Virus record (IMG/VR): IMGVR_UViG_3300044695_005266
Span: 2,767 to 66,766 of that record
Direction: 5' to 3' (one strand)
Length of the DNA stretch: 64,000 bases
Source: a virus
The notes under the pieces are model-generated. The model saw nothing but the letters and a program-made list of their open reading frames with translations, searched no databases and had not been told where the DNA came from. Position 1 is the first letter of the stretch. Every line of letters begins with the position of its first letter. Shown one piece after another: positions 51,203 through 54,904 of the stretch. A program made the translations under genes and the position numbers.

Positions 51203-51513
51203 ACTCTCAGAACGAACTCGACTTTTCCGGCCCCGCGCTGCGCGACAGTGGCATATCCAAGGTTCTCGCCAATAACGAGGAATGGAAGCAACGCTTTTTC
51301 ACGGCTGCTGCGATGATCGTTCAAGCCCGTGGAACAGTTACCAGCGATCTAGTGGTTGAGGCGATAGGCGAGCCGGATGGTAGCCCTAACGTCATTGGTG
51401 CGGCTATGCGGTCATTCGCTGTCAGCAACAACCTGCAAGTGGTTCACTACATGAAAAGCCAGAAGCCCAGGCGTCATGCTGCGATTGTCGCGGTATGGGG
51501 GAGAGTGATATGA
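51199..51513 (+). CDS. Hypothetical phage protein
   Basis: Start MNSQNELDF coupled to the upstream stop. Confidence 0.65.
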   Translation: MNSQNELDFSGPALRDSGISKVLANNEEWKQRFFTAAAMIVQARGTVTSDLVVEAIGEPDGSPNVIGAAMRSFAVSNNLQVVHYMKSQKPRRHAAIVAVWGRVI

Positions 51514-52811
51514 GTGAACAGACTTACCTTCCGGCAATTCACCGGATGCTCCCTCAATCCGAAGAAGCCGAAAAAGGGGTGCTATCGTGCCTCGTTCTAA
51601 GCCCAAACGAGGTAGGTGCGATATGCAGCAAGATGGGCATCACTCACAAGCACTTCCTGATTCCCGCTCACTCCCTGTTGTTTCGAGCGGCAACCGCGCT
51701 ATGGAAAGCAGGGAAGCCCCTGGACTTCATCACCCTGACGCAGTTCCTCCGCGACAAGGGCAAGCTGGATCAAGCGGGTGGGGCTGCTGCCGTTTCCTCC
51801 CTGTTCACGTTCCTGCCAACTGCCGCCAACGCTGAATACTATCTTGGCTTACTCACGGAAAAGGCGATTGCTCGCGCTTTGATTCATATCGGGACAAAGT
51901 ATGCGAGCAAGGCGTATGACGAGCAGGGCGGGGTCAATGCGCTCGCGGCTGAACTGCATAGGGAAGTCTGTGAACTACTAGGGCAGGGGCGGATCAAGGA
52001 TCAGCCTATCAAGGAAGTCTTGAAGGAGATTTTGCAGGAGATAGCCAGCGGGAAAGAGGATGAAAGCAATCTGCCGACCTACATCCCGGCACTCGATCAG
52101 AACTTGAAGCTCTATCGTTCTGACTTTGTAGCTATCAAGGGCGGCACGGGTAGCGGCAAATCCTCTCTAGGGTCACAGATTATCGTGGAGACGGCTATCA
52201 GGGGCAGCAACAACTTGTTTTTCCCGCTAGAAATGTCAGCGAAGCAATGCCTTAAACGGGCTATCGCGGGCATATCCGGTCACAACATGGAGGCTGCGCG
52301 GTTCCAGATGAAGGTTGCGCTCAGGACAGGCGATATGTCAGGGACACAGCAGATGCAACAGGATGTCGCCGGAGCCGTGCAAAAGCTGATGGCGAGTAAC
52401 CTACGGATGCCGAAGTCGTGCAGGACGCTCAACTCGATTATCGGGGAGTGCAGAAGCGCGAATGCGGAGAAGCAGCTAGATTATGTCCTCATAGACTACA
52501 TACAATTATTGCACGTTGAAGGCAATTTCGGGACTCGCCAACTCTCCATCGGTCACGCGACACAAACGCTCAAGCAGCTGGCCGACGAACTCAAGTGCAT
52601 CATCATCACCCCGTCACAGGTGAATAAGGACGGGGTATCGCGGGAAGCTGCGGACATCGAGAACGACGCCAACTCTGTAATCGCCATTGACTACAACAAG
52701 GAGGACGGGACGCGCAAGGTGCGCGTGGAGAAGCAGCGCGAGGGTGCATCGGGTATCGAGGTTCCGCTGGAATGGAATGGGCCTTTAACCAAGTTTGAAC
52801 CTATAAAATAA
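51510..52811 (+). CDS. dnaB: Replicative DNA helicase, DnaB-like
   Basis: LPQSEEAEKGVL N-domain, GGTGSGKS, LEMS, IDYIQL, SQVN, IENDA, KQREG. Confidence 0.92.
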   Translation: MSEQTYLPAIHRMLPQSEEAEKGVLSCLVLSPNEVGAICSKMGITHKHFLIPAHSLLFRAATALWKAGKPLDFITLTQFLRDKGKLDQAGGAAAVSSLFTFLPTAANAEYYLGLLTEKAIARALIHIGTKYASKAYDEQGGVNALAAELHREVCELLGQGRIKDQPIKEVLKEILQEIASGKEDESNLPTYIPALDQNLKLYRSDFVAIKGGTGSGKSSLGSQIIVETAIRGSNNLFFPLEMSAKQCLKRAIAGISGHNMEAARFQMKVALRTGDMSGTQQMQQDVAGAVQKLMASNLRMPKSCRTLNSIIGECRSANAEKQLDYVLIDYIQLLHVEGNFGTRQLSIGHATQTLKQLADELKCIIITPSQVNKDGVSREAADIENDANSVIAIDYNKEDGTRKVRVEKQREGASGIEVPLEWNGPLTKFEPIK

Positions 52812-53080: not shown

Positions 53081-53268
53081 AAATAACCGCCATGTCCGAC
53101 GCATACGACAACTACGACGACCCTGATCCCGATAACCTGCGCCATGAGTTCGGGAAGCCGAAGCGCAAGGGATTCGATTGCGCCGATGGATTTTGCGGGG
53201 CTGGCGATTGCCGGAAGTGCAATGGCGCGTATGCAGAGAAACGGGAGGAAGATGAAAACGCACCTTGA
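53077..53268 (+). CDS. Small Cys-cluster protein
   Basis: CADGFCGAGDCRKC. Confidence 0.55.
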   Translation: MKITAMSDAYDNYDDPDPDNLRHEFGKPKRKGFDCADGFCGAGDCRKCNGAYAEKREEDENAP

Positions 53269-54202
53269 CCTTTTCAGCGGAATCGGAGGATTTGCGATAG
53301 CCGCGCAAGCCTGCGGATATACAACAATCGGCTTTTGCGAAAAAGAGAAATATGCACAACAAATACTCAAAGAACGGTTCGGAGCGGTTCTGGTTGACAG
53401 CACAAGCGCGGGACTACCGAAGCGTCACGGGGCGGGAGCACTTACAGCGGGAGAACGCCATGCAAAACTTGAATGTAGCAGCAGTATATTCCCAACGCTC
53501 CACCCCGACATCTTCGACCTCGACGGAGCCGACTACGCCGGGGTTGACCTGCTCACAGGGGGATTTCCTTGCCAGCCTTTCAGTGTCGCCGGGAAGCGAC
53601 GAGGCGCGGAAGATGACCGTGCGCTCTGGCCGGAAATGCTCAGAGTTATTAACGAAGCAAGACCCCGTTGGCTCATTGGTGAAAACGTTGCTGGAATCGT
53701 CACGATGGAACTCGACAATATCCTTTCTTCACTGGAAGCAATCGGTTACTCCTGCTGGCCGCTTGTTATTCCGGCTTGCGCCGTCGATGCCAGACACAGA
53801 AGGGACAGAGTTTGGATTGTGGCCCACGCCGACCGTTCAGGACAGCGACAAGGCGACGAAGAAGATGCGGAGCGAGCATCAAAATAACCTGACAGCGGTG
53901 GTTTTCAACAGTCCCATGTTTCCGACGCCAACTGCGAGGGATCACAAGGGCAGCTACACCCCGGAGGCGATGACACGGAAGGACGGCAAAAGCCGGATGG
54001 ATGGGCTTCCGCAGGCAGCGGCATATCATGCGGATGGAAACCCGAATCACAGTGGTTCGCTGAATCCGGCATGGGTCGAGTGGCTCATGGGATACCCCAT
54101 CGGTCACACCGTTTGCGCGGATTGGGAAACGCCATCGTCCCGCAAGTCGCGGAAGAAATCATCCGAGCAATCGCCACAATAGATGAACCCGCACACGATT
54201 AA
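53252..54202 (+). CDS. C5 cytosine methyltransferase alpha frame, interrupted by one in-frame TAA at 53885-53887
   Basis: DLFSGIGG, GGFPCQPFS, ENV, RDRVWIV before the stop; the same frame continues to GRVAHGIP..RLRGLGNAIVPQVA (motif X) and TAA at 54200-54202. Confidence 0.8.
53352..54182 (+). CDS. C5 methyltransferase beta polypeptide, nested in the +1 frame
   Basis: 276-aa open frame with WPTP/FPTP repeats and LNPAWVEWLMGYPIGHT (motif IX-like). Confidence 0.75.
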   Translation: MHNKYSKNGSERFWLTAQARDYRSVTGREHLQRENAMQNLNVAAVYSQRSTPTSSTSTEPTTPGLTCSQGDFLASLSVSPGSDEARKMTVRSGRKCSELLTKQDPVGSLVKTLLESSRWNSTISFLHWKQSVTPAGRLLFRLAPSMPDTEGTEFGLWPTPTVQDSDKATKKMRSEHQNNLTAVVFNSPMFPTPTARDHKGSYTPEAMTRKDGKSRMDGLPQAAAYHADGNPNHSGSLNPAWVEWLMGYPIGHTVCADWETPSSRKSRKKSSEQSPQ

Positions 54203-54560
54203 ACGCTTATTCCCGAATGCCTCTGCATCCCTGATACAAGCCAACCTACAAGACTATGGACAAGCTCACGTTGATAATCCCCGGACGACTCCCGTTGTGG
54301 AATCAAATACTTGCGATGCACCACTGGAAACGAAAGAAGTTCAAGGACGCGCAGATGGACGATTTCTTGTCCGCGTTATCAGTTGCCGCAAGCGACTTGC
54401 AGATGAGGACGGGTTGTGCGAAAAATATGTTTTGGATTGCTGCCGATACGCTGGCCTCATTCCAGACGACTCGCCGGAACTCTGCAAAATTGAAACGAGC
54501 CAAAGGAAAGCCGCGAAAGGCGAAGCGGAGCATACGATCATCGAAATAACACGACCATGA
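54183..54560 (+). CDS. RusA-like Holliday junction resolvase, catalytic half
   Basis: RKRLADEDGLCEKYVLDCCRYAGLIPDDS...TIIEI. Confidence 0.7.
   Translation: MNPHTIKRLFPNASASLIQANLQDYGQAHVDNPRTTPVVESNTCDAPLETKEVQGRADGRFLVRVISCRKRLADEDGLCEKYVLDCCRYAGLIPDDSPELCKIETSQRKAAKGEAEHTIIEITRP
54256..54549 (+). CDS. Nested +1-frame ORF resembling the RusA N-terminal strand/helix
   Basis: MDKLTLIIPGRLPLWNQILAMHHWKRKKFK, with its own ATG. Confidence 0.55.
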   Translation: MDKLTLIIPGRLPLWNQILAMHHWKRKKFKDAQMDDFLSALSVAASDLQMRTGCAKNMFWIAADTLASFQTTRRNSAKLKRAKGKPRKAKRSIRSSK

Positions 54561-54775
54561 ACACCGACGAACTATTCACCCTGCCCCCGTCACAACCTTC
54601 ACCCCTGCAATCCGCTCGCAGGGCATTGGCTGATGCTGAACGGGATTACGCCGCCGAGCGCGAACGCTGGAAAGAAAACTCGATTGAGCTAGAGCCGTAT
54701 CGTCGTGCCGTGAACCGATACTCGGAACTCGTTAAAGCCGAAGAACTTAAAGAACTTAATAACCGCGCTGGGTAA
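54557..54775 (+). CDS. Hypothetical helical protein
   Basis: 72-aa coupled ORF. Confidence 0.55.
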   Translation: MNTDELFTLPPSQPSPLQSARRALADAERDYAAERERWKENSIELEPYRRAVNRYSELVKAEELKELNNRAG

Positions 54776-54904
54776 ATTATCCCGCTTGTCTGCTGCTAAA
54801 GCCGTTCCTGTCTTTTGAAAAGAGTCACAGGGATGAACTAAAGTGGTGGGTAAAGAACAAGTGCATCTGCATCGTGTGATGCGGGTGGCGCGACCCCTTT
54901 TTAC

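Follow-up and report, generated by a model that had tools for sequence, protein, structure and literature searches.

The DNA analysed here is a stretch of 64,000 nucleotides (nt), called the window, from IMG/VR virus record IMGVR_UViG_3300044695_005266 (positions 2,767 to 66,766). The record has 66,766 bases, is rated complete by CheckV and was detected in lake-water metagenomes. The subject is a short gene at 54183-54560 of the window, in which a RusA-type resolvase appears to be divided between two overlapping open reading frames (ORFs). ORF A spans the gene, contains the sequence GRFLVRVISCRKRLADEDGLCEKYVLDCCRYAGLIPDDSPE and ends in HTIIEITRP. ORF B lies wholly inside it and its N-terminus is MDKLTLIIPGRLPLWNQILAMHHWKRKKFK. 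A sequence-only reading had reported a nested +1 ORF with its own ATG at 54256; the ORF list confirms this, and the peptide strings given there were exact. The features are as follows, with lengths in amino acids (aa).

54183-54560, plus strand: ORF A, 125 aa and a stop codon, made up of an N-terminal motif, a linker that is not under selection and a catalytic core resembling RusA
54183-54251, plus strand: frame-A N-terminal motif MNPHTIKRLFPNASASLIQANLQ, conserved in frame A; a frame-B stop lies upstream of 54256
54252-54353, plus strand: frame-A linker, about residues 24-57, open and unselected, the -1 shadow of the frame-B N-terminal element
54354-54557, plus strand: RusA-like core of frame A (strand-helix-strand-strand), from the frame-A coding pattern and the RusA alignment
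54402-54404 (D74), 54408-54410 (D76), 54423-54425 (K81), 54435-54437 (D85) and 54468-54470 (D96), plus strand: invariant codons of the core
54256-54549, plus strand: ORF B, +1 frame, own ATG, 97 aa and a stop codon
54256-54399, plus strand: residues 1-48 of B, with an extended strand (LTLII), a P-L-W-N motif and a long helix, from the invariant columns and the AlphaFold 2 (AF2) model
54354-54387, plus strand: switch zone in which both frames look constrained (A ..GRFLVRVIS; B ..DDFLSALSVA), from third-position entropy and resampling
54439-54462, plus strand: residues 62-69 of B (AADTLASF), a frame-B-specific motif over C-R-Y-A-G of A, from codon resampling
54466-54546, plus strand: Lys/Arg-rich C-terminal tail of B, seen in the sequence and modelled as the end of a long helix
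54331-54336, plus strand: CGA AAG in frame-B phase, only a candidate -1 slip site, unconserved among relatives

The catalytic core in frame A and the N-terminal element in frame B

The relation of A to RusA was examined with alignments of its family, termed A1 for the relatives of the whole chain and core for the C-terminal part. In A1 the residues P11, D74, D76, K81, D85, D96, Q107 and E116 are invariant. The core alignment, with 69 sequences from the two clades described below, has invariant D17, K24, D28 and D39 and a nearly invariant D19; D17/D19/K24/D28/D39 correspond to D74/D76/K81/D85/D96 of the window's protein. When the core was compared by hhalign with an alignment of 18 E. coli-type RusA proteins, its residues 9-68 aligned to RusA 62-118 with a probability of 90.3% and an E value of 1.5e-6, and D74, D76, K81, D85 and D96 fell on RusA D70, D72, K76, D80 and D90/91. 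Of these, we take D70, D72, K76 and D91 to be the catalytic residues of RusA. A PDB search with the core alignment gave E. coli RusA (1q8r_A) as the second match, with an E value of 0.19 that is not significant alone; core residues 3-40 lay on RusA 57-93 with the D/D/K/D/DD columns aligned. Three clade-2 A ORFs matched phrog_34, "RusA-like Holliday junction resolvase" (1.3e-12, 3.6e-8 and 4.8e-10), always through the C-terminal half of the profile, and one reached 0.0068 against the NCBIfam RusA model, far under its cut-off. In the ESM Atlas the best score for A was 0.84, and one cluster at 0.83 holds PF05866 in 10% of its members, which is only a lead.

Other searches were empty. The A and B chains of the window gave no match in Pfam (E<=1), PHROG or NCBIfam, 12 clade-2 ORFs searched against Pfam at E<=10 gave no RusA and nothing relevant, and a PDB sequence search with the A1 profile returned only chance matches to ribosomal protein S15. 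From the core alignments it follows that A would hold the catalytic C-terminal half of RusA without the first ~56 residues. Judged by these alignments the A core is homologous to that half, and the catalytic half had indeed been assigned to the main ORF in the sequence-only reading. A complete RusA alpha/beta fold was not found in this one polypeptide, whose alignment is confined to RusA 57-118.

Modelled alone by AF2, A reaches a predicted local distance difference test score (pLDDT) of 68, with helices at 3-9 and 15-22, a linker at pLDDT ~50 over residues 23-60, and the strand-helix-strand-strand core. Fold searches with it returned only generic strand-helix-strand-strand matches (Foldseek pdb best E 0.1; VIA-align wide best Z 5.9). 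The N-terminal consensus of frame A is M....I.RLFPNASAS.IAAN; its RLFPNAS.S.I.AN motif belongs to no known family, and an FPNAS-like motif is present in 17 of 30 clade-1 representatives. Some clade-1 relatives (L065/L076/L077) carry a different frame-A N-terminus, MTDAMRRCMHREPTLK... In L074 (~1400-1500) this segment is found in frame B instead, so that B is extended and A has no ATG there. By eye the difference in L074 looked like a one-base change in an A run, either natural variation or an assembly slip.

Chain B has the invariant residues P13, N16, W24, R26, F37 and L41. Its start resembles the RusA N-terminus in the right order, namely a hydrophobic strand followed by L-P-x-x-P-S-x-N. Modelled alone by AF2, B has a pLDDT of 70.6, an extended N-terminus and two long helices; the helices were assigned to H15-20, H23-48 (pLDDT 79-89 in that stretch) and H58-96. 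A profile of B residues 1-43 was searched against 1.84 billion cluster representatives and matched 252 at E<=1e-3. In all 40 of the B-type representatives that were read, the strand/P-x-W-N/helix element stands at the N-terminus and a basic tail at the C-terminus. Among the best 150, the N-terminal motif is present in 146 and at least 30% Lys/Arg in the last 25 residues in 95, and in none of them does the D.D..K...D core motif stand in the same chain, as a single-frame or fused form would have it.

Conservation and selection of both frames

Two clades of viral relatives were collected. For clade 1, a pattern built on the A family retrieved 184 viral relatives; the best 80 were kept and, together with the window, amount to 60 distinct sequences. 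Clade 2 was reached from weaker matches of the B profile; from the best 80 of 146 viral relatives 66 distinct sequences with the motif were obtained, and the motif search gave no match in four of the kept loci. The distance from the B motif P-[S/L]-[W/L/S]-[N/K] to the A motif R.R..D.D is exactly 95 nt in 59 of the 60 clade-1 loci, and the 60th has 140 nt and the same frame offset. In clade 2 it is 107 nt in 68 of 76 loci. Frame B comes to within about 10-25 nt of the frame-A stop in most clade-1 loci; it ends most often 11-23 nt before that stop, in a few cases 29-116 nt earlier or 13-19 nt past that stop, and the third frame contains 5.35 stops on average. The clade-2 consensus of B is LPF.LPTWN.LLAM.HW.RKK.RD, and the -1 frame there holds a far more canonical core, ..IHIHS.RKRL.DPDGISAKA.IDGLV.AGIL.DDS...EETIIEI. 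Across the two deep clades no version without B was seen.

The layout is shared by nine contigs of metagenome-assembled genomes (MAGs) from several bacterial phyla and one archaeal-labelled bin. That bin (L186) is labelled Thorarchaeota, the other MAG matches being bacterial, and binning may mislead. Among 50,697 GenBank phage records the layout was found in one, a metagenomic assembly in which only the B ORF is annotated, as a hypothetical protein; this record (L179, BK063671.1) carries the host label Methanomicrobiales. For ORF B 12 called homologues were found. For ORF A, 99 of 110 candidate proteins matched at E<=1e-3, and no precomputed Pfam domain is listed for any of them.

Start codons are present separately for the two frames. 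In clade 1 the frame-B ATG precedes the first strand in 30/30 representatives and an upstream frame-A ATG is present in 28/30. In clade 2 an upstream frame-A start without an intervening stop was found in 37/44, and it lies 4 or 7 nt before the B ATG in 15/44, compared with 3/44 in a control frame. The clade-2 starts are often interleaved as N-T-G-N-A-T-G with the A start 4 nt before the B ATG (e.g. L158, L127, L135, L140, L145, L172), so one ribosome-binding region could serve both frames. A GGAGG-like sequence stands ahead of several B ATGs. A frame-A stop inside the B N-terminal region occurs in 8 of 53 clade-2 loci. Four of them have this stop at codon 24 or 27, and in all four frame A offers a new ATG shortly after it, at codon 26 or 29; of the 49 other loci only 5 have an ATG there (hypergeometric p ~4e-4, our own arithmetic). 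By their sequence, these loci with a late stop would make a core-only chain A of ~70 aa.

Selection was followed through the entropy of the codon positions in 30 clade-1 representatives at <=90% nucleotide identity and 53 clade-2 representatives. Over codons 0-30 of clade 1 the entropy of frame-A positions 1/2/3 was 1.39/1.09/0.69, the pattern of a coding frame B, and from codon ~39 it was 0.81/0.63/1.29, that of a coding frame A, with the switch at codon ~33-39. In clade 2 the frame switches between codons 34 and 35. The frame-A third positions of the switch zone include an invariant T at codons 34 and 38, which encode F37 and L41 of B, and a near-invariant codon 35 (entropy 0.21). In clade 1 the frame-A constraint begins at codons 31 and 33, and B codons 39-41 still exceed the null, so that the two constraints overlap by ~5-10 codons. 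In the linker only 4 of 33 frame-A columns rise above the null given the B protein, and two of these, codons 31 and 33, already belong to the beginning of the core. Because the linker shows the frame-B coding pattern, the middle of protein A is an unselected shadow of the B N-terminus. The N-terminus of A, earlier described as unrelated-looking, therefore has two parts: the description misses the conserved RLFPNAS.S.I.AN motif, and the remainder is this shadow.

Resampling of codons gave the same picture inside the core. In clade 2 (45 sequences, <=72% identity) 14 of 45 B columns within the A core beat all 2000 resamplings that preserve A. They cluster in E-Y-L-x-M-I-R-P-x-x-S-x-K-S, the clade-2 counterpart of the AADTLASF motif of the window; its Tyr is present in 42/45 sequences, whereas the resampled sets had it in 15.9 on average and in 25 at most. 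In clade 1 (26 sequences, <=78% nucleotide identity) 8 of 49 B columns beat all 1000 such resamplings, among them A-D-T-L, B residues 63-66. With the frame-A protein held fixed, frame B would be expected open in a fraction of 0.20 of clade 1 and 0.08 of clade 2; it is open in 30/30 and 53/53 representatives. Frame A is open over the B N-terminal region in 30/30 of clade 1 (0.28 expected) and 45/53 of clade 2 (0.33 expected). Both frames are open and under purifying selection, and the effect is large and repeated in two deep clades despite the kinship of the sequences. The persistence of the nested ORF and its ATG in homologues and the dual-frame codon constraint, which the sequence-only reading had proposed to check, were thus both found.

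A probable two-chain enzyme and the alternatives

For the co-fold, A residues 55-125 and B residues 1-75 were each given their own alignment. The row order of one alignment bore no relation to that of the other, which kept the model from using covariation due to shared codons. The ipSAE (interaction prediction score from aligned errors), a model confidence and no measurement, was 0.84-0.85 in three runs and 0.00-0.01 for three controls. The runs had at least 94% of their contacts in common and a partner pLDDT of at least 89, and both chains rose from ~70 alone to ~88-90 together. In the model, B 5-8 is strand-paired with A 117-122, the last strand of A, and B 2-18 lies against A 115-124. The B helix 29-41, with the invariant F37 and L41, packs on the A helix 77-92, and B 62-63, 65-66 and 69 in the A-D-T-L region contact A 89-90. 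A comparison of the DNA-level tests with the co-fold places the frame-B-selected residues F37, L41 and A63-L66 at the predicted interface.

The conserved, dual-constrained arrangement and the high-confidence co-fold make two polypeptides from one dual-coded segment, one of the two possibilities of the sequence-only reading, the best-supported explanation. We put the probability that a RusA-type resolvase is split here between two chains, each with its own reading frame on a shared DNA segment, at roughly 60%. The two polypeptides would be made from the separate start codons of one dual-coding gene. Chain A would give the catalytic C-terminal half, strand-helix-strand-strand with Asp/Asp/Lys/Asp/Asp, and chain B the missing N-terminal strand and helix. 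The conserved C-terminal helix of B would clamp the A helix, and B would add a basic tail. Joined non-covalently into one RusA-like fold, as the model predicts, the A-B complex would presumably dimerise as RusA does and cut branched DNA late in phage replication. Some contacting residues of A and B would be encoded by the same nucleotides. The arrangement may have originated in an old frameshift in a resolvase gene that was rescued by fragment complementation and not repaired. For the complete proposal of an obligate two-chain RusA-type resolvase, with its halves in two frames of the same ~300 bases, an ancient frameshift rescued in this way and a B tail that evolved into a clamp, we see about even odds.

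Several observations weigh against a two-chain resolvase. The Pfam RusA model (PF05866) has no match in A or B, and at E<=10 it has none anywhere in the 66.8-kb record either; solved RusA is absent among the fold matches of the A-alone model with its pLDDT of 68. B had no PDB, Pfam or PHROG match, and hhalign placed B 1-20 on RusA 1-19 with a probability of 8.7% over 19 columns, which is weak. The strand/P-x-x-N/helix element that had been recognised in B is thus present and conserved, its RusA label is tentative, and of the two frames only the A core was borne out by profile comparison. The sequences are phylogenetically related, which makes the resampling p-values inexact. Of 80 solved complexes, 58 attain the ipSAE mark of this co-fold, as do 2 of 110 mismatched pairs, counts that hold only roughly for a co-fold with custom alignments. 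The good co-fold may also stem from likeness to the solved single-chain RusA, as is common for halves of a split gene, and the contact of B 62-66 with A 89-90 joins residues encoded by the same nucleotides. A frame-A ATG upstream of the core is missing from 12 of 53 clade-2 loci, and in L171 neither ATG nor GTG nor TTG follows the frame-A stop. An RNA-library contig spans 54298-54529; it may be carried-over DNA and is silent on translation.

B might instead be an overprinted gene in its own right, whose product could be a small basic protein that binds DNA or acts in regulation, or else an inhibitor or chaperone of A, and A would then work alone as a RusA variant without the first strand and helix. 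We consider this unlikely. It would account for the non-significant RusA match of B, for the features of B that are foreign to RusA (the conserved C-terminal helix motif and the K/R tail) and for the conserved N-terminal motif that A has of its own in about half of clade 1. Phage lambda offers a parallel in Rz/Rz1, where an embedded +1-frame gene codes for a product that binds the product of its host gene. Against it, the RusA residues ~1-56 that A is missing are the kind of element with which B starts, in the same order. The co-fold adds the first strand of B as an edge strand beside the last strand of A and so completes the fold rather than covering a surface, and both chains gain confidence from it. 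The two frames have also been kept together in two deep clades.

A programmed -1 frameshift is less probable still. Translation would start at the B ATG, slip near 54331-54378 and finish in A, giving a RusA-like chain of ~100 aa with or without the unshifted products. The order of the elements, N-terminal in B and core in A with A in the frame of B minus 1, is what such a shift would join, and the selection pattern changes frame at one place. The window has CGA AAG in frame-B phase, the -1 hexanucleotide of IS1222 (known here through the reference list of PMC10885494), and the clade-2 loci with frame-A stops before the core or no upstream frame-A ATG would also be explained. However, no X XXY YYZ heptamer was seen by eye around the switch zone in any of 30 clade-1 sequences, in line with the earlier remark that no canonical slippery heptamer is present, and only 6 of 53 clade-2 representatives have one in phase within codons 18-38. 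The conserved nucleotides at the switch differ between the clades. In 12 of the 30 clade-1 representatives the 78 nt past the switch had no more structure than codon shuffles (minimum free energy z -0.88 to +1.65). Frame B stays open and selected ~60 codons beyond the putative site. Since the A constraint begins at codon 31-33 and that of B runs through codon 41 and beyond, one fused chain cannot contain both. In L114 the frame-A stop at codon 27 lies downstream of the R-K-K (CGA AAG) site, and joining at R-K-K would remove the long helix. No tRNA gene was found in the window. The frameshift joint near 54350-54375, the other possibility of the sequence-only reading, was therefore not upheld, and low-level shifting may occur besides the two chains. 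The gap-free passage of the RNA-library contig through the zone weighs weakly against transcriptional slippage.

Three further candidates were dropped. A back-hop of 3n+1 bases or an A-B-A double shift was set aside because full-length B is selected and each frame has a start. A GCAAG-CGA-CTTGC hairpin noticed by eye after the switch (~54384-54396) is absent in relatives. The "RusA/RuvC" frameshift listing of the PRFect paper is no precedent for RusA, since the sole related reference found in the available part of that paper, Sharples & Lloyd 1991, concerns ruvC.

That the split reflects an indel from sequencing, or the decay of a frameshifted pseudogene in a dying prophage, is highly improbable: two adjacent genes, resolvase and methyltransferase, both change frame and the methyltransferase main frame has an in-frame TAA at 53885-53887 that is absent from 74 of 75 relatives, but the genome is rated complete, the identical frame offset recurs in all distinct viral loci, 60 of clade 1 and 66 of clade 2, as well as in the 9 motif-bearing MAG loci, and both frames are under purifying selection. 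Contigs of three independent lake DNA runs cover 54043-54427, 54201-54595 and 54292-54800 with zero differences and zero gaps, which excludes an indel error in this assembly, and no insertion or deletion inside 54183-54560 was reported in any of the four runs compared; coverage gaps in these contigs are evidence of nothing. The conserved offset, the independent contigs and the selection on frame B together rule out a pseudogene or sequencing error for the RusA-like gene.

The neighbouring methyltransferase and known systems

The gene upstream is a C5 methyltransferase that is itself written in two frames. Its ORF F1 (53144-54202) has motifs I-VIII as well as X, together with the single in-frame TAA, which may truncate or split the alpha chain in this phage. 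The +1 ORF F2 (53352-54182) matches phrog_1008 over residues 36-256 and has relatives in at least 595 viral loci. The PCQ motif is present in 78 of the best 80 of these loci. In 30 loci that were printed, PCQ, ENV and GNA, as far as each was found, share a frame with a single exception, and every W-P-T-P that was found belongs to the +1 frame. F1 is unbroken from PCQ to GNA in 74 of 75 loci and F2 is open over about the same span. The dual-frame methyltransferase of the sequence-only reading is thus real and of a known kind, with the alpha/beta layout of M.EcoHK31I. The suggested cassette of nested two-part enzymes fails, since methyltransferase motifs were found within 1.5 kb in only 2/59 clade-1 and 2/53 clade-2 loci, 4/112 in all.

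In the RNA-library run X22, one contig passes from 53249 to 54195 through 20 letters of different sequence and skips 945 bases, which indicates some relative without the whole methyltransferase and also speaks against a link of the two genes. The methyltransferase looks like a mosaic insertion beside the resolvase gene. In run X8 the summed contig depth over 54012-54125, the motif IX/X region, was 288-520 with many loose ends; this segment is common to many other organisms in the sample, so the jump in depth is no copy-number signal.

If correct, the two-chain resolvase has been maintained in two deeply separated clades of uncultured phages, whose habitats are lakes, seas and sediments. It would be a natural and widespread test case for the rescue of a frameshift by fragment complementation and for the co-evolution of proteins that share nucleotides. 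It also marks a blind spot of annotation: gene callers see one frame at a time, the databases hold either the A product (99 matches) or the B product (252 cluster representatives), both as hypothetical proteins, and Pfam RusA misses both. As the methyltransferase family has the same nested layout in so many viral loci, such genes may be commoner in phages than annotation suggests. To our knowledge, long same-strand overlaps with both frames selected are rare in tailed double-stranded DNA phages. Literature searches on RusA with frameshifting, RusA with embedded frames and overlapping or dual-coding phage genes yielded nothing that describes a two-frame RusA.

Genes with a -1 frameshift, such as dnaX, the phage tail chaperone G/GT and the IS3-family transposases including IS1222, share with the present gene the -1 offset of the frames, the upstream element in the 0 frame and the CGA AAG in phase. 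They differ in that the signals are here absent or unconserved and the 0 frame is selected far downstream. Lambda Rz/Rz1 is likewise a tailed-phage gene pair with one member embedded in the +1 frame and with products that bind each other, but Rz differs from Rz1 as a protein; together they form a membrane-spanning complex and are no halves of one ancestral enzyme fold.

RusA itself (E. coli DLP12 prophage rusA; PF05866; 1Q8R) resembles the present gene in the alignment of the core to RusA 57/62-118 with the invariants on D70, D72, K76, D80 and D90/91, in size, in phage origin and in the site downstream of replication genes (a DnaB-like ORF at 51495-52811). RusA is one chain of 120 aa, whereas here the catalytic chain has no equivalent of residues ~1-56, and something similar to them stands in the +1 frame. 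Chain B carries an extra conserved helix and a basic tail, and the Pfam RusA model reaches neither frame.

Close parallels are the C5 methyltransferases M.EcoHK31I and M.AquI, enzymes of two chains; the M.EcoHK31I type has ORFs in different frames with their own starts, as has the present gene. Our searches found this type to be the only documented case in which two frames of one segment share an enzyme fold between them. In the available part of the M.EcoHK31I study (PMC2836561), the beta chain has its whole coding sequence in a different frame of the alpha gene and is required for activity, and internal start codons were suspected to serve the nested chain; frame-A codons 26/29 may act as internal starts in a comparable way. 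The need for both chains is proven for that enzyme, according to the same text, and is a prediction for the resolvase. The enzyme family is also a different one. In M.EcoHK31I, as described there, the large chain is a near-whole enzyme to which the nested chain adds one motif, whereas the predicted resolvase would have its fold divided near the middle, by two ORFs that cover nearly the same stretch.

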